From a virus (taxonomy: Duplodnaviria; Heunggongvirae; Uroviricota; Caudoviricetes): a stretch of 48,520 nt of DNA. The notes beneath the pieces are model-generated. The model was not told where the DNA came from and did not search any database. It worked only from the letters and a program-made list of their open reading frames with translations. The stretch lies in IMG/VR virus record IMGVR_UViG_2563366838_000005; one strand, 5' to 3'. Below are positions 19,892 through 45,336 of this stretch, piece after piece. Position 1 is the stretch's first letter, and every line of letters starts with the position of its first letter. The position numbers and the translations under genes are program-made.

Positions 19892-20465
19892 TATCTTTAA
19901 TGTTAGCTTGTTGGATGTTTTACCTCCTAACTTAGCTAGCGATCCCAACGTGATAGCTATGTCGAAAGCTATTGATGATGAACTACAAGCAATTAACAAT
20001 TTAATATATAAGACAGAAATATATAGCGTTGTTGATAACCTGGACTCAGTTGTTCTCGATCATTTAGCTTGGCAATGGAATGCTGATACATGGAGGGATA
20101 GTTGGCCTGTATCGTTAAAGCGTTCTGTTTTTAAATCAATAATACGAACAAAGCGAATAAAGGGTACAAGGGCAGCGGTTGAAGATGTAGTAAATAGCTT
20201 GGGTGGAGAGGTAAACATAACAGAATGGTTTGAAACATCACCACCTGGCGAACCATATACAGCCTCAATTGTTGCTTCGATTAACTCTTTTGATGGTGCT
20301 GTTCCTTCGAAAGAGATGTTGGAGGATACGTTAAGAAGTATCAAGAGTGCAAAGTCGGCAAGAACACTATTTACATTTTCGCAAGCAACCAATGTTTCAG
20401 GTGGTGTTGGTATTGTCGGTGCTTTCCAGCCTGTGTCTTATGTACGATTAATTGGTGAGTGCTAA
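19884..20465 (+). CDS. Baseplate/tail protein, gpI-like
   Basis: 193 aa between J-like and tail fibre genes. Confidence 0.6.
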   Translation: MADIFNVSLLDVLPPNLASDPNVIAMSKAIDDELQAINNLIYKTEIYSVVDNLDSVVLDHLAWQWNADTWRDSWPVSLKRSVFKSIIRTKRIKGTRAAVEDVVNSLGGEVNITEWFETSPPGEPYTASIVASINSFDGAVPSKEMLEDTLRSIKSAKSARTLFTFSQATNVSGGVGIVGAFQPVSYVRLIGEC

Positions 20466-24202: not shown

Positions 24203-24245
24203 TATGATTGTGGGTGTCTGGTTGGAAAGTGACCAGATATGGAAA

Positions 24246-24354
24246 CAAAAAGCCCGCAGATAAATCTGCGGGCTTCTTGCGACATCCACGGAAAACCAAC
24301 AACAACAATCCATGGGCGCCTCGACAACTCCCATTATACGTTGGTTTTCCGTGG
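24246..24354 (-). ncRNA. Candidate CopA-like antisense RNA over the repA leader
   Basis: Minus-strand hairpin plus T5 at 24246-24274 and a 15 bp perfect inverted repeat (24286-24300 / 24340-24354) just upstream of the repA start. Confidence 0.3.
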
Positions 24355-24370
24355 ACGCAAGAGCGAACAT

Positions 24371-25219
24371 ATGGATAGACCAATGCCGTCTCTACGTTCA
24401 GCTTACGTTTGTAATTTGTCGCCGGAGTTCCAGCCTCCAAAGCACCATACGCACAAGCTGCCGCTGGTGTTATCTGATGCTTTACAGCGCATTAATGGGC
24501 GTGATCTTACGTGTGAGGTTGCGTTCTACGTTAATCAACCGTCAGAGCGGAAGCGCCGGATAAACGAGCATCGTCGTCGGGCGATTAATGCTGTGATCGC
24601 TGCGATTTTGCACCATGTAAACATCATTTCTAAGCGGGTTCTGGCTAGTGCTGAGGCGTTGGCTGATTTTTGCGGCCTGTCTACCGTATCCGAAGCTGGG
24701 AACAAGTCTATAACGCGCTGTACAAGGGCGTTGTCGCAACTGAAAGCGTTAGGTTTTATTGATTATGAACGTCGCTGGGATCGGGTGAATAAACAGTATT
24801 GGCCAGCGAAAATAGAGATTCGTGATCAACTGCTGGAAACCGTTGGTATTACTGAACAAGCATGGAGACGTGCGGTTAGCCAGAAACTTAATTACTTCAA
24901 TGCGAAGAATAGCGAACGGCTTAAAAAAGCGATAACGGAGGCTGATTATAAGCGTATTGTTATTCAGGAGCAGATGGAGAATGTATGGCGTCAGAGGAAG
25001 ACGGCCAGAGAGATAAAGGCAAAACAGAAAGCAGCGGAGAGAGCTGCGCGTCTTGTTCGGGAAAAGGGAGAGGCCGAACTTCGTCATCAAATCACCAGAG
25101 AGGTTAGTCAGGAATTTGCTGATGGCATGTATCCTGGTGCTGACCTTGCATATTTACGATCCCTCGTTGAGCAGCGTTATAACAGGTTAAGAAAGACCTG
25201 GAAATCACTCCAACATTAA
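24371..25219 (+). CDS. repA: Plasmid replication initiator RepA, IncFII RepA1-like (ORF also open from 24239)
   Basis: Segment CGLSTVSEAGNKSITRCTRALSQLKALGFIDYE resembles IncFII RepA1 as recalled; basic C-terminal region; internal ATG at 24371 gives a 282 aa product. Confidence 0.7.
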   Translation: MDRPMPSLRSAYVCNLSPEFQPPKHHTHKLPLVLSDALQRINGRDLTCEVAFYVNQPSERKRRINEHRRRAINAVIAAILHHVNIISKRVLASAEALADFCGLSTVSEAGNKSITRCTRALSQLKALGFIDYERRWDRVNKQYWPAKIEIRDQLLETVGITEQAWRRAVSQKLNYFNAKNSERLKKAITEADYKRIVIQEQMENVWRQRKTAREIKAKQKAAERAARLVREKGEAELRHQITREVSQEFADGMYPGADLAYLRSLVEQRYNRLRKTWKSLQH

Positions 25220-27646: not shown

Positions 27647-27800
27647 TTGGCACCTCCAATTGTTTAAAATGTGTTAATTGTAAAATTCAGCCGATACCAT
27701 GTTCAATGGTATACCATTGCTGAAATGTCTTTTTCAAGACCTTGCCAATAAGCTAAACAAAAATGTTTAATGTGCAGCCTAAAAAAGCACCAGTCACTAT

Positions 27801-27913
27801 TATTTATATAATTATAGATTTATATAAAAAGTGCTTTACGGGTGGGAAAAAATTTCCTAAGGTTATACCCGAAACCGAGCGATACCCGCCCTGGTTAAAC
27901 CGGAGATAACCCG
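27801..27913 (+). promoter_or_regulatory. Conserved promoter/leader block, copy 1
   Basis: Near-identical to 37201-37320 and 45221-45336: TATAATTATAGATTTATATAA motif, TTTAC(A/G)-17 nt-TAAGGT, conserved leader ending GGAG-N8-ATG. Confidence 0.55.
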
Positions 27914-29910: not shown

Positions 29911-29937
29911 AAGCGCCCAAATCGGGCGCTTTGTTTT
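29911..29937. terminator. Terminator hairpin between convergent genes
   Basis: agcgccc aaat cgggcgct followed by ttgtttt; sits between convergent stops at 29901 and 29936. Confidence 0.6.
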
Positions 29938-31087
29938 ATGGTTTTGCACCTGCGGCCAGTTTATCCGCAGATATTTTTATCAGTTCCTGTAGTGTCTTGG
30001 CTGGCAGGTTTGCATCCAGAACGCTGAGTATGCTGTTGTGATCAGCTTGGTCGACTACTTTGCCTGTCGGTGGTAGTAGCTTGAGCTGAGGATTCAGGTT
30101 TTCGTCAAAGCTGATAAGTGCTCTGGCGTTTCTGAGCAGATCAAGAAGTAAGGCTGATATCACATTTTCCTGAGTCATTGCTGGCAGATTTAGCACCGCT
30201 TTGGTTTTCCCTGTTGCCTTGTCAAACTCCTTGATTAGTTCCTTCCTGTAGTTCGGTTCCGTTAATAGCCGATTATGCTCTGTTGCCGCGCGGATAATCG
30301 TTTTTTCCTGGTACAGTCGTTTAGCCAGATCGCGCTCGTACTGTGTTTTTAACACGCTGCTGATAGCGTTAAAGGCTTCAATGTAGGCCAGCTTGATATC
30401 CTTCACGCCTGGACCGTCGATACTTTCCATGAGCAAGGTAAATCCGTCTTTTGTCATGCGATAGATTGTTATTTCGCGGTCGCTTCCTTCCAACGGTCGT
30501 TGCTCTTTAAAGAAATGACGCGCCGCAGCTGTGCGAGGAATGCGTAACGCATCGATGGCCATAACGATGGAATTGTTTGTGGTGCTGAATGCTTGGGCAA
30601 CATCGGCTGAGGTTGTGAGTGGCTCGTTGTTGCACACCTTAACGTAATACATTGGTTTGGCGTTGAGCGTATCGACAACCTCACGAGCATTGTTTGGTGA
30701 GACGGTTACGGTCGCGGCCGTTTGCGCGTTCTGGCTGAAATAGCAGTCTTCCAGCCGTTCGAACACATCCCACGCCTGATCGGTTTCGAGCATTTTAGCG
30801 TGACGTGCAGCCCCGCGTTCTGTCCAGAGGATGAGAGAGCGAGTTTTGGGGGAAATTTGTACCTCATTTTGTGACTCGTTTAAAACTAGTCGCAAATTTT
30901 TGAGTTCATCACCAACAGCTTTAAAGAAGTGCTTCCCCTCAATGAACCGAGTTTTATTTTCATGGTGATTTTGCTGTATACGGATTGCTTCTGTTCCATA
31001 AAGGCGGGCGAGTAGCTCAGTTGTGATTACTGGAATCTGATTATGCAGGATAGGCTGTAGGGTGTTAACGGTCCGAAGCGTTTTCAT
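29936..31087 (-). CDS. Phage antirepressor / regulatory protein (ORF6N-like N-terminus, Rha-like C-terminus)
   Basis: 383 aa; domain layout recalled from antirepressor families; start overlaps upstream small ORF. Confidence 0.65.
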   Translation of the reverse strand: MKTLRTVNTLQPILHNQIPVITTELLARLYGTEAIRIQQNHHENKTRFIEGKHFFKAVGDELKNLRLVLNESQNEVQISPKTRSLILWTERGAARHAKMLETDQAWDVFERLEDCYFSQNAQTAATVTVSPNNAREVVDTLNAKPMYYVKVCNNEPLTTSADVAQAFSTTNNSIVMAIDALRIPRTAAARHFFKEQRPLEGSDREITIYRMTKDGFTLLMESIDGPGVKDIKLAYIEAFNAISSVLKTQYERDLAKRLYQEKTIIRAATEHNRLLTEPNYRKELIKEFDKATGKTKAVLNLPAMTQENVISALLLDLLRNARALISFDENLNPQLKLLPPTGKVVDQADHNSILSVLDANLPAKTLQELIKISADKLAAGAKP

Positions 31088-31371
31088 TTTGCACCTCCCA
31101 TAACTACTTTGGTTACGAGGGAGATTTTTGCGTCAGAAACAGCGTTATCGTTGCTGGCGATGCGCATAGCTTCGCGCTCGATGATTTCAGCCAGGCGGAA
31201 TTTATCGGCGTATGAGGCTTTCTTGAGAAGGATCTTTACGAGATTGACGTAATAGTCATGGGGTAAGTTTGTCATGATGATAGTTCCAGTTTTGATATTG
31301 GAATAATCACCACCGCTGACGCCAATCAGTGAGGTGGTGAGACGTACAGGGTTGGCGTAACCGGTCATCAT
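31084..31371 (-). CDS. Hypothetical protein translationally coupled to antirepressor
   Basis: 95 aa ORF whose stop overlaps the antirepressor start. Confidence 0.45.
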   Translation of the reverse strand: MMTGYANPVRLTTSLIGVSGGDYSNIKTGTIIMTNLPHDYYVNLVKILLKKASYADKFRLAEIIEREAMRIASNDNAVSDAKISLVTKVVMGGAK

Positions 31372-31441
31372 GATACCCGGCGAGCCTTACGGCTCCCCCG
31401 CACGCCCCACCATAATTCGGGTGTAGCTGTGCTTTACGCAT

Positions 31442-31462
31442 AAAAAAACCGCTAACGCGGTA
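31442..31462 (-). terminator. Candidate minus-strand terminator in antirepressor operon leader
   Basis: On minus strand: 5 bp stem accgc/gcggt, 4 nt loop, then T7. Confidence 0.35.
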
Positions 31463-31608
31463 TGCGCCATGATGATTATCGGGACGCCAATCCCGACCGT
31501 AGATTTTGCTACGGCTCGGAAAGTGTCCACCAATGGCGCATTCATGTCAATACGGCAGGATTTTAACAGAGACAACCACATAGCGTGGGTTTATTGGTAG
31601 GCAGAAAC

Positions 31609-31635: not shown

Positions 31636-32032
31636 CTTTCGTGCTGATCGGATTCGCGGTCCTTTCAGCATTACGTTGTTGTATAAACAACCACGCAAGC
31701 ACAAGCAGCAAGTTAATTTTACCCAAAAGGTAATAATAGTCCACTATTATGCTTCAAAAAATTGTGGTTCTTGTTGTGCCTGCAAACTCACAGATTGTGG
31801 GTAGGTTACTGATTTTGTGAAAATAAACGAGTTTTTTCGTTTAATTTCTTTCCTATTACTAATCTTAAAATAATCGTAAAATACCTGTGGACCTTCCCGC
31901 CGATTCGCACCCGGGCACCGACTTTAGGGGAGGATTCTCCGTTGCCGTACATGCAAGCACAAGCAGCCGTGCTTGCTCTCGCGTTGTTTTCGTCGGTGGG
32001 GATGCCGTGAAACGGCCTGTAAGGGCCATACA

Positions 32033-32155
32033 ATGAAAAAATACTGTATGTGTATTTTTATCGTTGTTACTGGGGCTTTGTTTACGCCACATGGGGAGGG
32101 TTGGAAGATTACTGATAACGCTCTGAATGTGACGATAAACATTAGCAGCAAGTAG
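32033..32155 (+). CDS. Candidate small hydrophobic peptide (40 aa)
   Basis: ATG 32033; hydrophobic core CMCIFIVVTGALF; strong terminator 6 nt after the stop; weak SD. Confidence 0.3.
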   Translation: MKKYCMCIFIVVTGALFTPHGEGWKITDNALNVTINISSK

Positions 32156-32160
32156 CGATT

Positions 32161-32185
32161 AGGCCCCTTCGGGGGCCTTTTTTTA
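32161..32185 (+). terminator. Rho-independent terminator
   Basis: aggcccc ttcg ggggcct followed by T7. Confidence 0.7.
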
Positions 32186-32194
32186 TGGCTGAAT

Positions 32195-32377
32195 TTAAAC
32201 GCTGGAGCGCATTAAGCCTTTCAGAACTGCTTCACGTACCCATTCTGGCCTGGTGGATAGCAGGGCAAATAAGCAGCCAGCTTGCAGCCGTTTGAGGTCG
32301 GTTAGACGAGTTTTCAGTAACCGTGTATATTGTTGCTCGGACATAACAAATTCCCCTTGTTGTGTCGCGACGGCCAA
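32195..32377 (-). CDS. Hypothetical small protein downstream of par genes
   Basis: 60 aa ORF only. Confidence 0.3.
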   Translation of the reverse strand: MAVATQQGEFVMSEQQYTRLLKTRLTDLKRLQAGCLFALLSTRPEWVREAVLKGLMRSSV

Positions 32378-32406
32378 CAGTTGGCGCTGGAGGCCGTCAC
32401 CTTCTC

Positions 32407-32655
32407 TTACTTCTGGTTGTATTGAGCCTTGAGTAACTCAAAAGACTTTGTCAGCACTTCTTTCAATGACATATCCATTGAGCTGGCGAACGTTTTGTAC
32501 TCGCGTTTAAATTCAGGGTCGACGTTAAACGCCATTTGTGCCCCACCTGATTTGGTTCTGGTTGGCGTTTCAGTCGGGTCGAAAACCTGCGGTTGTTCGA
32601 TCGATGGCGGTACGCCTTTGCTGTTCTTCTTTGGTGGTTTTGATGGTGCGGCCAT
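32407..32655 (-). CDS. Partition protein, ParG-like ribbon-helix-helix
   Basis: 82 aa; C-terminal NVDPEFKREYKTFASSMDMSLKEVL resembles ParG RHH; immediately downstream of ParA. Confidence 0.65.
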   Translation of the reverse strand: MAAPSKPPKKNSKGVPPSIEQPQVFDPTETPTRTKSGGAQMAFNVDPEFKREYKTFASSMDMSLKEVLTKSFELLKAQYNQK

Positions 32656-32698
32656 GTGTATCCCCTCTTATATAAATCTATAAAACTATAATTATATA

Positions 32699-33367
32699 TT
32701 ATGCGGCAGTAGTCAGAGCCTCAAGCTGGTTGATAATCCCCTGAATAACGTCGTCTGCCTTTTTGCGTGGCGCAACGTATGAGCACTCAATGAGGCTTAA
32801 GCCCTTATCCTGAGCTTTGCTCAGAGCTGGCTTGTGGGGAATGTACTTATCGACAACAAAGTATGGCGTATTAGCCAGGTACTCTTGGGCTTCAATATAG
32901 TCAGCTTCGTTTTCAGCCGCGCCGGAAAACACCATGCAAATTTTCTTGATTGGTACACCCTTTTTAACGATGCCGTGAGCAGTGTTAACGGTGGTTTCCA
33001 GGTCATCGGTAGAGAATCGGGTTGGCAAAATAACCATATCCAGAAATTCAGATAGCTTCGGTACTGATTCAGATGCGTAGGCACCGCCATCGACGATAAC
33101 CAGGTCGTATACTTCTGATTCGATGATTTTCTGGACTTGTGATGGTGTGCCGCACGGCTGCGCCGCGATTGCTGGTTCGATATTGTTGGCCATTCTGCGT
33201 TGTACCCAACGCGTTACCGTTCCGTTAAGCACATCCATATCGATCAGGCATACATTCCAGCCAGCCTTTGCATAAGCAACTGCTAAAGCACGGGCAATTG
33301 TTGATTTGGTTACGCCGCCTTTTCCGTTGAAAATACCTACAGAGATAGTCATTTGTCGAGACTCCAT
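32699..33367 (-). CDS. parA: Partition ATPase ParA (type Ib)
   Basis: 222 aa; deviant Walker A GIFNGKGGVTKST; paired with a small RHH protein. Confidence 0.85.
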   Translation of the reverse strand: MESRQMTISVGIFNGKGGVTKSTIARALAVAYAKAGWNVCLIDMDVLNGTVTRWVQRRMANNIEPAIAAQPCGTPSQVQKIIESEVYDLVIVDGGAYASESVPKLSEFLDMVILPTRFSTDDLETTVNTAHGIVKKGVPIKKICMVFSGAAENEADYIEAQEYLANTPYFVVDKYIPHKPALSKAQDKGLSLIECSYVAPRKKADDVIQGIINQLEALTTAA

Positions 33368-33480
33368 GTGTTTGGTTATATAATTCTATAAATCTATATT
33401 TATAGAACGAGGTAAGCATAACCAACTTTTTGGCTGATGAAAAGCGTTTTATATAATTATATAAAACTATAATCATATAA
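33368..33480. promoter_or_regulatory. Candidate partition site / par operator with TATA-rich iterons
   Basis: Two clusters (about 33375-33405 and 33445-33478) of CTATAA/TTATAG-type ~8 bp repeats upstream of parA; a third between parG and parA (32663-32698). Confidence 0.45.
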
Positions 33481-33502
33481 GCGGGCGTTAGCCCGCTTGC
33501 AG

Positions 33503-33877: not shown

Positions 33878-33912
33878 GCGTAGCCTCTTTTATACTTTTA
33901 CATGTTGTCAAA

Positions 33913-33927
33913 ACCACAAAATGTGGT
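33913..33927. promoter_or_regulatory. ACCAC-N5-GTGGT palindrome downstream of cI (operator and/or terminator)
   Basis: accacaaaatggtggt-type palindrome (accacaaaatgtggt) followed by T-run. Confidence 0.4.
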
Positions 33928-33969
33928 TTTTTTGAGCGTAGAAATGCACGGCTTTCGCCGTGCTGTGTA

Positions 33970-34626
33970 TCATAACCAGTTGACAACACTAACTACGCGG
34001 CCAAGAACTTTATAACGCTTAAATTCCTCGTTATTCAGATGCTTAGTGTTCATTTCAGCATCCCTTTCGGTTGACAGCATAACAGCATTGTCACCCGGTA
34101 TGACTCTACAGTGCCTCAAAACAACCAGGCCATTTCTGTCTTCAAGGGCATAGATCCCCTCATGAATCTCTGTATCGTCTGTATTAATCAGGACTTGGGA
34201 GCCTGGGGATATTGTTGGTGACATTAACTCATCGTTGCTCTGGAGAACTGACAGAGACGATGGGTTGATGTTCTTGCTTCGTAGAATCTCCTGTTCTATC
34301 GCCAGCACTGGCTTTTCTCCGGCGTGCGATGCTATGTCATTTTTTATAGCTACAAGCCCAGGAATAACAGGAGCGTTAGTATTCTGGGGTGGGAACGGGT
34401 TATCTGTTAAGCACGCGATATAAGGCGCTGATGCTTTCAGGGCGTGCGCGATTTTCTTGATGGCAGGTATAGATGGTTGTCTTAATCCGGCCTCATAGTT
34501 CTGCAAGGTGCTTAAGCCTATTCCAGTGACTTGCTGGAGATCTCCGGCAGTCATGCCGGATTGTTTCCGTAGAGTCTGAATGCGCAGACCTATTTCTTTC
34601 TTGATGTTCTCGTCGTTGCTTTTCAT
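33970..34626 (-). CDS. CI-like prophage repressor (N-terminal HTH, C-terminal S24 LexA-like peptidase domain)
   Basis: 218 aa; HTH GMTAGDLQQVTGIGLSTLQNYE; C-terminal domain with S24-like layout; divergent from Cro-like gene. Confidence 0.8.
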   Translation of the reverse strand: MKSNDENIKKEIGLRIQTLRKQSGMTAGDLQQVTGIGLSTLQNYEAGLRQPSIPAIKKIAHALKASAPYIACLTDNPFPPQNTNAPVIPGLVAIKNDIASHAGEKPVLAIEQEILRSKNINPSSLSVLQSNDELMSPTISPGSQVLINTDDTEIHEGIYALEDRNGLVVLRHCRVIPGDNAVMLSTERDAEMNTKHLNNEEFKRYKVLGRVVSVVNWL

Positions 34627-34800
34627 GTCTCATCAATCGTGAATGGTGGGTTATTTATACATTACCACATTTAGTGGTTTTCACATGGTAAGACGAGAGG
34701 TGGACCACAAATAGAAGGTTATTTTTTGTTTTGCCCATTGAAAAACTCACGATATGTGGTTTTAATACCACATATCGTGGTTTTAACTGGAGTTCGTTAA
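34627..34800. promoter_or_regulatory. Immunity-region operator/promoter region between cI and cro-like genes
   Basis: ACCAC-N5-GTGGT at 34664-34678 and 34767-34781, the latter within a 13 bp perfect inverted repeat (34748-34760 / 34767-34779). Confidence 0.55.
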
Positions 34801-37200: not shown

Positions 37201-37320
37201 AAAATCTATAAATATATAATTATAGATTTATATAAAAAGTGCTTTACAGGTGGGAAAAAATTTCCTAAGGTTATACCCGAAACCGAGCGATACCCGCCCT
37301 GGTTAAACCGGAGAAATCTG
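37201..37320 (+). promoter_or_regulatory. Conserved promoter/leader block, copy 2
   Basis: Near-identical to copies 1 and 3; upstream AAATCTATAA-N8-TTATAGATTT inverted repeat. Confidence 0.55.
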
Positions 37321-38388
37321 ATGAATAAACAAGTAATTATTTCTGACTGGATCAACAACCCTAACAGCCTGTTAAGCACTGATACTGGCTACCTATTACG
37401 CCATGTTAATGGTCGTATGGTCAAAAGCGATGAGCACGAAACCTTTTTCTTTGTTGAAGATGATGGGCGTATCTATGAGGATGGTTACTCTTATGAAGCC
37501 CAAACTGGTTGTATCCCTGCGGAGCTGGTGGACGTAACAGAAGATCTGCGCAAAGCATGGCTTGAACAGCAGCAGCGCGGAGATGATTACGTAAACACCT
37601 ATCAGGAACGCCAGAACGCGCGTCTTGCCCGATATATTGCTCGTGCAGAAAAAGCCAGAAAAGAAGGTGCGGTAGCGCATAAGCGAGCGCATGACCTGTT
37701 GGATGTGATCCCGTTAGGCCAGCCGATTTTAGTTGACCATTATAGCGCGAAAGGCCATCGCCGCCGTTTGTCTAAAGCTGATGCGTTATTAAGAAAAGCG
37801 TTTGTTGAATGCGAAAGTAAAGCATCACACTACGAGAGCAAAGCCGCAGGTGTTGGTCGTAATGGAATTTCGTCTGATGATCCTGATGCGCTATTTAAGT
37901 TGCTTCGTAAGCTGCAAGGCTGCATGAAGTCACACGTCAAAATGAAGGCCGCAAATAAGGCCATTCGCAAATACAAAAAAGACCAATTACAGCAGCTTTC
38001 TGCATTAATCGATCTCAGGTTTACAGAAAGCGAAGCCAAAGAGTTACTGGCCGGAGATTTCTGTGGGCACATCGGATTCCCTTCATACGCACTGAGCAAC
38101 AATAACGCCGAGATCAAACGACTACAGAGCCGTATTAAGGAGCTTGAATCGGTCAAGTCTGTAACAGGAGCACAGCGCGAAGAATACGACGACTTTTCTA
38201 TGGAGATAGATCCAGAGGATAACCGCATCCTGTTTTATTTCCCTGGCAAACCAGAGGCAAACATTCGTTCGCTGCTTAAATCACGTGCCTTTAAGTGGAG
38301 TCCAACCCGTAATGCATGGGTTCGCAAGATTACTCCAAATGCCCTGGCTGATGCCCGATATCTGAAAGAATCGCTATTGAAAGCCTGA
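37321..38388 (+). CDS. DUF3560-like hypothetical protein (355 aa)
   Basis: GQPILVDHYSAKGHRRR motif recalled as typical of DUF3560; starts exactly after conserved block. Confidence 0.5.
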   Translation: MNKQVIISDWINNPNSLLSTDTGYLLRHVNGRMVKSDEHETFFFVEDDGRIYEDGYSYEAQTGCIPAELVDVTEDLRKAWLEQQQRGDDYVNTYQERQNARLARYIARAEKARKEGAVAHKRAHDLLDVIPLGQPILVDHYSAKGHRRRLSKADALLRKAFVECESKASHYESKAAGVGRNGISSDDPDALFKLLRKLQGCMKSHVKMKAANKAIRKYKKDQLQQLSALIDLRFTESEAKELLAGDFCGHIGFPSYALSNNNAEIKRLQSRIKELESVKSVTGAQREEYDDFSMEIDPEDNRILFYFPGKPEANIRSLLKSRAFKWSPTRNAWVRKITPNALADARYLKESLLKA

Positions 38389-38399
38389 CAGTAAGCCTA

Positions 38400-38419
38400 C
38401 GGCGGGATGTCTCCCGCCG
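38400..38419 (+). terminator. Hairpin terminator followed by AT-rich iteron-like motif
   Basis: cggcggga tgtc tcccgccg, 8 bp stem. Confidence 0.45.
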
Positions 38420-38444
38420 TATATAGAATTATATATTTATATAA

Positions 38445-38747
38445 ATGTATAAGGACGCCTCGACAATGAAACGCAAAATTATTAACCCCCAAGATGTGAT
38501 TAATTTCCTGACCGATCACCCATGTTCAAAAGTGGACGTAATCGCGGAGCACATTGGTGTGTCGCAGAACTCTATGCGTTGCAGACTGAGAAGCATGGTT
38601 GCCGAAGGACAGATAACAACCAGGAAAATAAATGGTTGCCTGTACTACTCCGCTAAACCGGAATTGCCATTTGGCATGAATCCTAACTCCATGTTGTTTA
38701 ACACCTTATTAGCCAAAGTTAAGCCGTTGAGAGGGGCTGTGGCATGA
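38445..38747 (+). CDS. Hypothetical protein, possible winged-helix DNA-binding (alternative start 38466)
   Basis: 100 aa ORF; segment VDVIAEHIGVSQNSMRCRLRSMVAEGQI resembles a wHTH. Confidence 0.4.
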   Translation: MYKDASTMKRKIINPQDVINFLTDHPCSKVDVIAEHIGVSQNSMRCRLRSMVAEGQITTRKINGCLYYSAKPELPFGMNPNSMLFNTLLAKVKPLRGAVA

Positions 38748-43960: not shown

Positions 43961-44084
43961 TACCGCCTGTGATTGGGTAAAGCCCATCTACCTGACTGAT
44001 CACGATATCGATGTTATGGACCGCCAGACAAAGAAAGATATTCTGGCTCATAACAGGGCATGGGAAATCAACTGCCCCAAGTAA
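43875..44084 (+). CDS. o-spanin (Rz1-like lipoprotein)
   Basis: 69 aa; lipobox LIASC; starts in an alternate frame inside the i-spanin gene. Confidence 0.6.
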   Translation: MYSRVLTIWLMTMLIASCGSRGSVPVVVDTACDWVKPIYLTDHDIDVMDRQTKKDILAHNRAWEINCPK

Positions 44085-44253
44085 TATATATTTCTATAAT
44101 TATATAAATATATAGTTACAACATTCTATGCGCTTTTCTCATGGGCGCACGCATCAACCATGTTTGTCTGATATGCCGCCGCGCCCAAAAATCCTGAATT
44201 TATTGGCTGGGATTTTCGTGCGCGGCGCCACACCAGACAAACAGATCAAATAT

Positions 44254-44329
44254 GGCCCCTTAGCTCAGTGGTTAGAGCAGGCGACTCATAATCGCACGGT
44301 CATCGGTTCAAATCCGGTAGGGGCCACCA
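44254..44329 (+). tRNA. tRNA with CAU anticodon, most like tRNA-Ile2 (lysidine type); could be scored as tRNA-Met
   Basis: 76 nt cloverleaf with 7 bp acceptor stem, D-arm GCTC/GAGC, anticodon loop CTCATAA, T-loop TTCAAAT, encoded CCA; resembles E. coli ileX as recalled. Confidence 0.8.
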
Positions 44330-44637
44330 ATTCACTCTCACACATAAAGATAAGCGCGGTGGAGTTACTTCCTTCGTGCTCATCTTTATGCGTGCCTGGT
44401 GCGCATTTCGGGCGAACGTGGGGCTAAGTTACAGGCAGGGCCTGTTATCCGCAAAGGGGTAAAAGCTGGAGCGGCACGGAACTGTAGCCGTGTTACCAAA
44501 ACAGCGTTGTCGGGCGATATCCGGCACACAACAGGCAAGGGCATTAATCAGTCTGGTTAGTGCCCTTTTCGTTGCGTCTGCTGTAGAGCTGGCCAGCGTT
44601 ATGACTGCCGGAGATAAGCGCCGGAGGCACAACTAAC

Positions 44638-45225
44638 ATGGAGGCAATTGCATTGTTTAATCTGATTTATGCAGATCCCCCCTGGGAATACAAAGATAAG
44701 TGTAAGGATGGGAATCGTGGAGCTGGTTTTAAGTATCCAACGATGAAAGCTGAGGATATTGCTCGTATTCCTGTCTGGCAGCTTGCTAATCCTGAATCGT
44801 GTTTGTTGGCCATGTGGTGGGTTCCGACTCAGCCAGAAGAAGCGTTGCTGGTGGTGAAAGCATGGGGATTCAGGCTTATGACCATGAAGGGCTTCACATG
44901 GAACAAATGTGGTAGCCGACAACCAGATAAGCTGGTGATGGGGATGGGGCATATGACTCGTGCAAACAGTGAAGATTGCTTGTTTGCGGTAAAAGGCAAA
45001 TTGCCGACCCGCCTTGATGCGGGGATCATTCAGTCGTTTACATCGCCTCGTCTGGAGCATTCTCGGAAGCCTGATGTGGTTCGTGACAAGCTGGTAAGGC
45101 TGTTAGGTGATGTTCCTCGTATTGAGCTGTTTGCTCGCGGTGATTTACCTGATGGTTGGCATGGCTGGGGCAACCAGTGCAATGGAAGTATCCAGTTGCA
45201 TGATGCTCTCTGGCAAGTGGTATAG
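44638..45225 (+). CDS. DNA adenine methyltransferase, MT-A70-like
   Basis: 195 aa; IYADPPWEY catalytic motif near N-terminus. Confidence 0.7.
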   Translation: MEAIALFNLIYADPPWEYKDKCKDGNRGAGFKYPTMKAEDIARIPVWQLANPESCLLAMWWVPTQPEEALLVVKAWGFRLMTMKGFTWNKCGSRQPDKLVMGMGHMTRANSEDCLFAVKGKLPTRLDAGIIQSFTSPRLEHSRKPDVVRDKLVRLLGDVPRIELFARGDLPDGWHGWGNQCNGSIQLHDALWQVV

Positions 45226-45336
45226 AATTATATAATTATAGATTTATATAAAAGTGCTTTACAGGTGGGAAAAAATTTCCTATGGTTATACCCGAAACCG
45301 AGCGATACCCGCCCTGGTTAAACCGGAGATAACCCG
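45221..45336 (+). promoter_or_regulatory. Conserved promoter/leader block, copy 3
   Basis: Near-identical to copies 1 and 2 (TTTACA-17 nt-TATGGT variant), ends at ATG 45337. Confidence 0.55.

Follow-up and report, generated by a model that had tools for sequence, protein, structure and literature searches.

Arrays of 8-bp repeats at the partition locus and at distant promoters of an enterobacterial phage-plasmid suggest a partition protein with a regulatory role

Plasmid pSM19035 of Streptococcus pyogenes carries six parS arrays of 7–10 heptads that overlap the copS, delta and omega promoters (PMC9499535; PMC5016525); these sites are operators as well as parS, and the omega protein needs at least four contiguous repeats for the activation of ParA (PMC9499535). 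In plasmid TP228 the boxes of the ParG protein recur every 8 bp, both at parH and in the OF operator, 20 of them upstream of parF (PMC3130281), and the linear phage-plasmid N15, which has a type Ia SopA/SopB system, carries four single 16-bp inverted repeats (IR1–IR4) scattered in its genome (PMC7205306). An arrangement that recalls these systems is described here for a stretch of 48,520 nucleotides from a virus of the Caudoviricetes (IMG/VR record IMGVR_UViG_2563366838_000005; this whole stretch is referred to as the window). The window is a circular E. coli phage-plasmid, complete or almost so, with contractile-tail structural genes, a plasmid RepA gene (24239–25219), an antirepressor module and a pair formed by parA and a small gene (parG for short) that encodes a ParG-like protein. 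Eight intergenic arrays of about 32 bp, each with some four in-register 8-bp units, are found in it: three (P1–P3) flank parA and the ParG-like gene, and five (D1–D5) are dispersed at distances of 4–12 kb. Together with the relatives of the element they suggest that the ParG-like protein, which has a predicted ribbon-helix-helix (RHH) domain, probably doubles as a regulator that acts through all eight four-unit arrays.

The units of the arrays are the palindrome TTATATAA and variants of it that carry one G/C (TTCTATAA, ATCTATAA and TTATAGAA). When phased in this 8-bp register, every array shows abrupt G+C-rich borders, and the G/C has a fixed position in the unit. The 16-mer TTATATAAATCTATAA from the par spacer, searched with up to 3 mismatches, gave 25 matches, where dinucleotide-preserving shuffles predict 0.76 (highest shuffle value 4); 22 of the 25 fall inside the eight clusters, and the other three (11291, 14708 and 17002) are isolated and carry 2–3 mismatches. 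Exact copies of the 16-mer lie on the plus strand at 32668–32683 and on the minus strand at 27812–27827, 37220–37235 and 45236–45251. A scan with 7-mers taken solely from the par-proximal arrays recovered the five dispersed arrays and nothing more in 48.5 kb, with 0.005 arrays expected from composition-preserving shuffles in 40-bp blocks, and other AT-rich tracts of the window (for example 1928–1969 and 19991–20025) did not match the motif. The arrays are real and non-random. The original prediction had listed clusters of TATA-type repeats, a motif common to the par locus and dispersed sites, and an exact 16-nt match between the parA–parG spacer and the reverse complement of the promoter blocks; all eight clusters are indeed present, within a few bases of where they had been placed, both scans confirm the common motif, and the 16-nt match is correct for all three promoter blocks. 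Three of the dispersed arrays (D1, D2 and D3) sit in a triplicated cassette of about 120 bp, and their mutual likeness is due to duplication; independent contexts are therefore only the cassette, D4, D5 and the three par arrays. An identity of the arrays as RepA iterons or as an origin was rejected, no array being placed near repA.

At the par locus, parA (32699–33352, minus strand) encodes a small Walker-type ParA/ParF-like ATPase of 217 amino acids, identified through Pfam and annotated as 'ParA family protein' in RefSeq relatives, with an alternative upstream ATG at 33367. It is followed by the ParG-like gene (32407–32655, minus strand; 82 amino acids), whose product is the putative array binder according to its translation, its AlphaFold2 (AF2) model and Foldseek. 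Read along the minus strand, the locus presents in turn a hairpin, P3, −35, −10, P2, Shine–Dalgarno sequence (SD), parA, P1, ParG-like gene, hairpin and an open reading frame (ORF) of 49 amino acids. The par promoter (33415–33443, minus strand), predicted by sequence inspection, consists of a −35 box TTTTCA (33443–33438), a 17-bp spacer and a −10 box TATGCT (33420–33415). Array P3 (33449–33480, four units) ends 5 bp upstream of this −35 box, spanning about −41 to −72, and a hairpin (33481–33498) adjoins it. Array P2 (33376–33407, four units), the putative autorepression operator, begins 7 nt downstream of the −10 box, that is, at roughly +1 to +32. The predicted promoter thus lies between P3 upstream and P2 at about +1, which is the layout expected for autorepression, and this flanking is kept in 9 relatives. 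The third array, P1 (32668–32699), is composed of the four units TTATATAA ATCTATAA AACTATAA TTATATAT and occupies exactly the spacer between the parA stop codon and the SD of the ParG-like gene.

Three of the dispersed arrays are placed directly upstream of near-identical promoter/leader cassettes on the plus strand. Array D1 (27796–27827; three good units at 27804–27827 and a degenerate one at 27796–27803) ends 7 bp upstream of the −35 box of cassette 1 (27828–27913; predicted −35 TTTACG at 27835–27840, −10 TAAGGT at 27858–27863). The four units of D2 (37204–37235) end likewise 7 bp upstream of the −35 box of cassette 2 (37236–37320; predicted −35 TTTACA at 37243–37248, −10 at 37266–37271), which precedes a DUF3560/primase-like gene (37321–38388), and those of D3 (45220–45251) end 6 bp upstream of the −35 box of cassette 3 (45252–45336; predicted −35 TTTACA at 45258–45263, −10 TATGGT at 45281–45286). 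The cassette, of about 86 bp, comprises a −35 box TTTACR, a 17-bp spacer with an inverted repeat, a −10 box TAAGGT/TATGGT and a conserved leader. P3, D1, D2 and D3 therefore share their position, ending 5–7 bp upstream of predicted −35 boxes, with the cassette arrays at about −41 to −75. Cassettes of one genome are near-identical and those of different genomes are not, a pattern that points to concerted evolution. Within the leader, a hairpin AACCGAGCG...CGCCCTGGTT (27870–27913 and the two paralogous leaders) shows two compensatory AU-to-GC pairs between E. coli/Salmonella and Serratia, and a small CGG/CCG hairpin encloses the SD; the leader hairpin may control translation or stability.

The two remaining arrays, each with four units, abut other transcription units. 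D4 (38421–38452) is inserted between a hairpin (38400–38419) and the SD/leader AAGGACGCCTCGACAATG of a gene for a MarR-like protein of 93 amino acids (38466–38747). The parA initiation region GGAGTCTCGACAAATG (33353–33368) resembles this post-D4 leader (38453–38468); CTCGACAA-ATG is common to both and is conserved in all three classes of relatives described below, before parA as well as before the D4-orthologous gene. D5 (44084–44115) comes directly after the stop codon of the preceding gene, 139 bp upstream of a tRNA-Met gene (44254–44329, plus strand). The tRNA lies inside a mechanically called ORF (44128–44427) that is probably spurious.

Comparison with relatives revealed that the arrays change in concert. 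A Salmonella plasmid with 80% identity in its par DNA has all eight arrays at orthologous places, with the order of the units reshuffled and the consensus unchanged. Two syntenic Serratia plasmids, one of them with a lambda-like and not a contractile tail module, encode ParG-like proteins of 38–45% identity, and their par-proximal arrays are of another type (TTAAATA/CTTTAA). The arrays of the cassettes and of the D4 orthologue have changed likewise in Serratia, while the promoter core next to them and the leader of D4 are conserved; D4-orthologous arrays are found in the Salmonella and in both Serratia plasmids, each with the motif of its own class. With further par loci from IMG/VR (L018–L025), three classes can be distinguished by hexamer: class E (CTATAA) with the window, the Salmonella plasmid, L018 and L019; class S (CTTTAA) with the two Serratia plasmids and L022; and class K (GATATA, in the form GATATA/ATATAAAT) with L020, L021 and L023–L025. 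Within each class the same hexamer recurs at 8-bp spacing in the par-proximal and in the dispersed arrays, and hexamer counts are near-categorical in all nine genomes, with at most one off-class hexamer per set. The matrix of shared k-mers separates class E from the two Serratia genomes of class S in block-diagonal form, these being the two classes that it covers; a cross-scan matrix, which includes class K, found classes E and S mutually exclusive. Array P1 was found in the class E relatives and in Serratia YL4 p2 and is missing from the others.

The promoters beside the arrays did not follow this change. Across classes E and S the promoter core (−35, TAGGA-N7-TCCTA, −10, leader) is conserved and the array alone changes. 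The promoter-linked dispersed arrays of class K abut the same −35-proximal core (array, AAAAAGAG, CTTGCG, CATTAGGA), which in this class is readable from the flanks in its array-proximal part only. The distance of 5–7 bp between array and −35 box is conserved in all three classes. The inverted repeat of the spacer reads (T)GGGA-N7-TCCTA in the window and TAGGA-N7-TCCTA in the relatives; that it remains unchanged across the ParG classes implies a second, different regulator at the cassettes.

The ParA protein matches the Pfam family CbiA/ParA/MipZ and is devoid of an N-terminal DNA-binding extension; its profile matches MinD/Soj/ParF-type ATPases, with ParF (4dzz) as a distant, weak match at E=1.8e-4. 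The ParG-like protein belongs to PHROG 6024, of 'unknown function'; it matched no Pfam family, and phmmer gave no match for it in the PDB. An exhaustive HMMER search collected about 50 small relatives at 33–48% identity, and Pfam RHH_10 was matched by 16 of the 47 aligned family members. The family profile aligns in register with ParG (1p94) at a non-significant E=0.77, this being the sole partition protein among the weak PDB sequence matches. In the AF2 model the basic residues 1–40 are disordered and residues 41–80 reach a predicted local distance difference test (pLDDT) score above 90, folding as strand-helix-helix with helices at 46–58 and 63–79. The Foldseek matches that rank highest for this domain (roughly the first 48 of 50 in the list) are with few exceptions RHH proteins, among them StnY, CdbA, ParG 1p94 (fifth by E-value), AmrZ, CopG, Arc and ParD; none has E≤0.001, and non-significant E-values are to be expected of a domain of 42 residues. 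The model thus supports a predicted architecture of a flexible basic tail followed by an RHH domain. The name parG given to the gene in the original prediction does not stand for a sequence family, in view of the missing Pfam match and the E=0.77 with 1p94, and 'ParG-like' holds as an architecture, not as a sequence family.

A closer inspection of the β-strand showed where the classes differ. In Arc the strand is Q-F-N-L-R, and Q9, N11 and R13 contact bases. When the ParG-like strand A-F-N-V-D is aligned to it, class differences fall on two predicted base-contacting positions, occupied by A/S and N in class E, N and N in class S, and L and R/Q in class K, and the interleaved core positions are hydrophobic in all classes. 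Between classes S and K the identity is 65–70% for ParA and 58–72% for the tail of the ParG-like protein and only 40–54% for the RHH domain; the DNA-binding domain has thus diverged disproportionately where the motif changed most. Since par-proximal and dispersed arrays switch their hexamer together, tracking the β-strand, all the arrays very likely have a common element-encoded binder, for which the ParG-like protein is the strongest candidate.

In the proposed mechanism one RHH dimer would bind each 8-bp unit through its β-ribbon, and four dimers would cooperatively coat a 32-bp array. Coating of P3 and P2 around the par promoter would lead to autorepression, and P1–P3 together would form the partition complex, where the tails of the ParG-like protein would engage ParA. 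The same protein would coat D1–D5, three of them at the triplicated cassette and two directly before other transcription units. At the cassettes, a coated array could occlude or replace contacts of an UP element with the α-subunit C-terminal domain (α-CTD), and at D4 and D5 the coating would abut the start of the transcription unit. The concentration of the ParG-like protein, set by autoregulation and by titration on its sites, would in this way control a small phage-plasmid regulon. The dispersed arrays may add centromere capacity, their primary, geometry-constrained role being presumably transcriptional.

The alternative that survives best, which we hold only tentatively, is a true dispersed centromere, in which D1–D5 would contribute materially to segregation, as IR1–IR4 of N15, and any effect on transcription would be secondary. 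The four contiguous units of each array equal the minimum for activation of the ParA ATPase in the omega–parS system (PMC9499535), the arrays extend across about 17 kb of the 48-kb replicon, and the operator arrays of pSM19035 and TP228 themselves have centromere activity. A pure centromere need not, however, keep a fixed distance of 5–7 bp from −35 boxes or abut an SD/leader, and the par genes are already flanked by three arrays. A transcriptional role was ranked above a purely centromeric one mainly because of that distance being conserved in three classes; centromere activity of the dispersed arrays is still plausible, and both this activity and the binding of the ParG-like protein are what we infer from the sequence. 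Both roles could also be joined: the ParG-like protein might be a hub of segregation and regulation, with the same arrays as distributed centromere and operators, expression set by copy number and by the assembly of the partition complex, and the three protein/hexamer pairs as incompatibility groups and as a recognition code. This broader proposal is possible though rather unlikely, and the putative RHH code that forms part of it would pair A/S-N with CTATAA, N-N with CTTTAA and L-R with GATATA.

That a different protein of the element reads the arrays, such as the 164-aa or the 171-aa early protein or the 49-aa ORF, seems improbable. The CI-like repressor, the two early proteins, Ref and the 49-aa ORF are all present in the nine genomes and vary between clades; tandem 8-bp units around the promoter of a parA–RHH operon are nevertheless the signature of an RHH centromere-binding protein, and it is the RHH domain of the ParG-like protein, in particular its predicted base-contacting residues, that tracks the motif classes. 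Classes E and K are not told apart by the 49-aa ORF, which is as similar between them (about 76–82%) as within class E (84%); this weakened it as a candidate. The CI-like repressor (33970–34626, minus strand) was rejected in view of its own distinct ACCACA-type palindromes, and the MarR-like 93-aa, the helix-turn-helix (HTH) 70-aa and the 124-aa proteins were rejected as undetectable in classes S and K. Least probable is that no dedicated protein is involved and that intrinsic promoter elements (AT tracts of the UP-element kind or embedded −10 hexamers) or sites for host nucleoid proteins such as IHF, Fis or H-NS were spread by duplication of the cassette: the arrays are nearly pure A+T and rich in TATAAT-like hexamers, their position of about −41 to −75 is one at which UP elements act, and D1–D3 are copies of one cassette, but the register of 8 bp is strict with G/C at a fixed unit position, the hexamer was switched jointly at all sites in three lineages whose related hosts have conserved nucleoid proteins, P1, P2, D4 and D5 are outside UP-element positions, and other AT-rich tracts are without the motif.

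Several points weigh against the ParG-like protein as a regulator acting through all eight arrays. That reading draws on sequence comparison and fold prediction; the promoters are consensus predictions only, and a scan of the region gave fewer promoter-like sites than shuffles did. No characterised centromere-binding protein matches the ParG-like protein significantly in sequence. The co-variation rests on three clades with two independent switches, and every element-encoded protein differs between clades; in addition, the 7-mers of class E also detect the class K arrays, the two motifs overlapping in part. The absence of P1 in several relatives indicates that not every array is essential. Erwinia phage LS-2018a encodes a distant ParA/ParG pair without recognisable 8-bp arrays beside parA and without synteny; it was likewise counted on this side, though as a comparison it is uninformative.

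Downstream of the ParG-like gene, a conserved ORF of 49 amino acids (32195–32344, minus strand) starts with an ATG at 32344 behind a good SD, and all nine relatives have it after parG. Before it lies a GC-rich hairpin (region 32195–32406) whose stem is kept and whose sequence varies between classes, and the ORF is a possible third gene of the par operon. Its product is 72–76% identical between classes E and K, though ParA is only about 54% identical, an unexplained mosaic.

The element is widespread among enterobacterial plasmids. At an identity of at least 95% its par region was found in 59 PLSDB plasmids of about 47–50 kb, mostly from E. coli, including the reference strain ATCC 25922; in all, the element occurs in at least 62 plasmids from E. 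coli, Salmonella and Klebsiella. The region is 98–99% identical in three Yersinia phages (vB_YpM_39, vB_YpM_41 and vB_YpM_44), and a literature search on these three phages found nothing. The promoter cassette was detected in 72 of 5,426 complete E. coli genomes, nearly always plasmid-borne; relatives with the cassette and without parA–parG were sought and none was found, the cassette being confined to this phage-plasmid family (the three Yersinia phages and the 72 E. coli genomes). A scan of genome contigs with the ParA alignment returned just two irrelevant matches in metagenome-assembled genomes (MAGs), and the pSLy3 group was rejected as this element, since it belongs to the SSU5 supercommunity. 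In Serratia plasmid pJSRIV006_2 (L006, NZ_CP074139.1) a lambda-like siphovirus structural module is joined to a plasmid/early module of the window type (RepA, antirepressor, parA–parG, CI, early genes and promoter cassettes) that elsewhere is joined to contractile-tail modules. Comparison of these genomes indicates that the maintenance/regulation module is swapped between phage morphotypes.

Other features surround the par locus. A full-length Rfam ryfA match (141.8 bits; 31887–32183, plus strand) adjoins the par operon and may be a type I toxin-antitoxin-like locus. Further on, the Rfam C4 antisense RNA and isrK (31330–31417 and 31442–31515, both on the minus strand) are placed upstream of an Ant/Rha-like antirepressor of 383 amino acids (29936–31087, minus strand), and this locus is an antirepressor control module like immI of P1/P7. 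On the other side, palindromes of the ACCACA...TGTGGT type at 33905–33930 and 34655–34790 lie around the CI-like gene and the divergent early promoter region; they are presumably CI operators, distinct from the TATA arrays.

Phage-plasmids often carry accessory genes, and beyond P1 and N15 little is known of how they coordinate their maintenance as plasmids with the expression of phage genes. If the proposed mechanism holds, plasmid segregation would be tied to the control of phage genes by one small partition protein, and a function would be assigned to a family now annotated as hypothetical (PHROG 6024, no Pfam). We know of no other omega-like partition protein that doubles as a global regulator in an enterobacterial phage-plasmid, so that this would be the first. 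The three co-varying protein/DNA classes are a natural experiment on how the RHH β-strand reads DNA and on the evolution of partition incompatibility.

Compared with known partition systems, the locus has the small ParA, the downstream RHH protein (by predicted fold) and the repeat arrays at the par promoter of type Ib. None of the sequence features that define the ParG, omega or Sop families was found, and the system was therefore filed as type Ib with an omega-like distribution of sites. In the N15 arrangement to which the original prediction compared the locus, the partition sites lie in promoters and regulate phage genes. Scattered sites in N15 were reportedly described by Ravin and Lane in 1999 and by Grigoriev and Lobocka in 2001, both cited in PMC7205306 and PMC5016525. 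As in N15, the putative binding sites of the present phage-plasmid are scattered among phage genes at distances of kilobases from the par operon, with D1–D5 at 27.8, 37.2, 38.4, 44.1 and 45.2 kb and the par locus at 32.4–33.5 kb. The components are different, a large HTH SopB with single inverted repeats in N15 against an 82-aa RHH protein with arrays of 4 × 8 bp here, and the proteins are unrelated. Of the resemblance to N15 that had been proposed, the logic of scattered sites in a phage-plasmid stands, whereas the likeness of components (type Ia against type Ib, single inverted repeats against arrays) does not.

Two further systems share single traits with the one described here. KorB of the IncP plasmid RK2 is a partition protein and a global repressor with 12 dispersed OB operators, but it is a ParB of the HTH type with single palindromic sites. 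MetJ, an RHH repressor, binds cooperatively to 2–5 tandem 8-bp palindromic boxes, the same box geometry as that of the palindromic TTATATAA units, though it is a chromosomal metabolic regulator with no role in partition.

By analogy of organization, closer precedents than N15 are ParG with parH/OF of TP228 and, nearest of all, omega/delta of pSM19035. TP228 shares with the present locus an ATPase gene followed by that of a small tailed RHH protein, and boxes spaced by 8 bp in direct and inverted orientation. In parH/OF the boxes are cooperatively coated, with one array as operator at the promoter and the other upstream as centromere; the TP228 boxes are nevertheless ACTC with 4-bp AT spacers, clustered and with no dispersed copies, as opposed to CTATAA/TTATATAA here. 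In pSM19035, as here, a small ParA and an RHH protein are combined with separate arrays of contiguous repeats at the promoters of different units, which in the present element are predicted promoters. No sequence match to omega was obtained with phmmer against the PDB or with the family profile. The pSM19035 repeats are non-palindromic 7-bp units (WATCACW) in arrays of 7–10, compared with TATA-type units of 8 bp in fours, and omega and delta are transcribed separately, unlike the parA–parG operon. The present system differs as well in its Gram-negative host, in its location on a phage-plasmid and in having a triplicated cassette among its targets.

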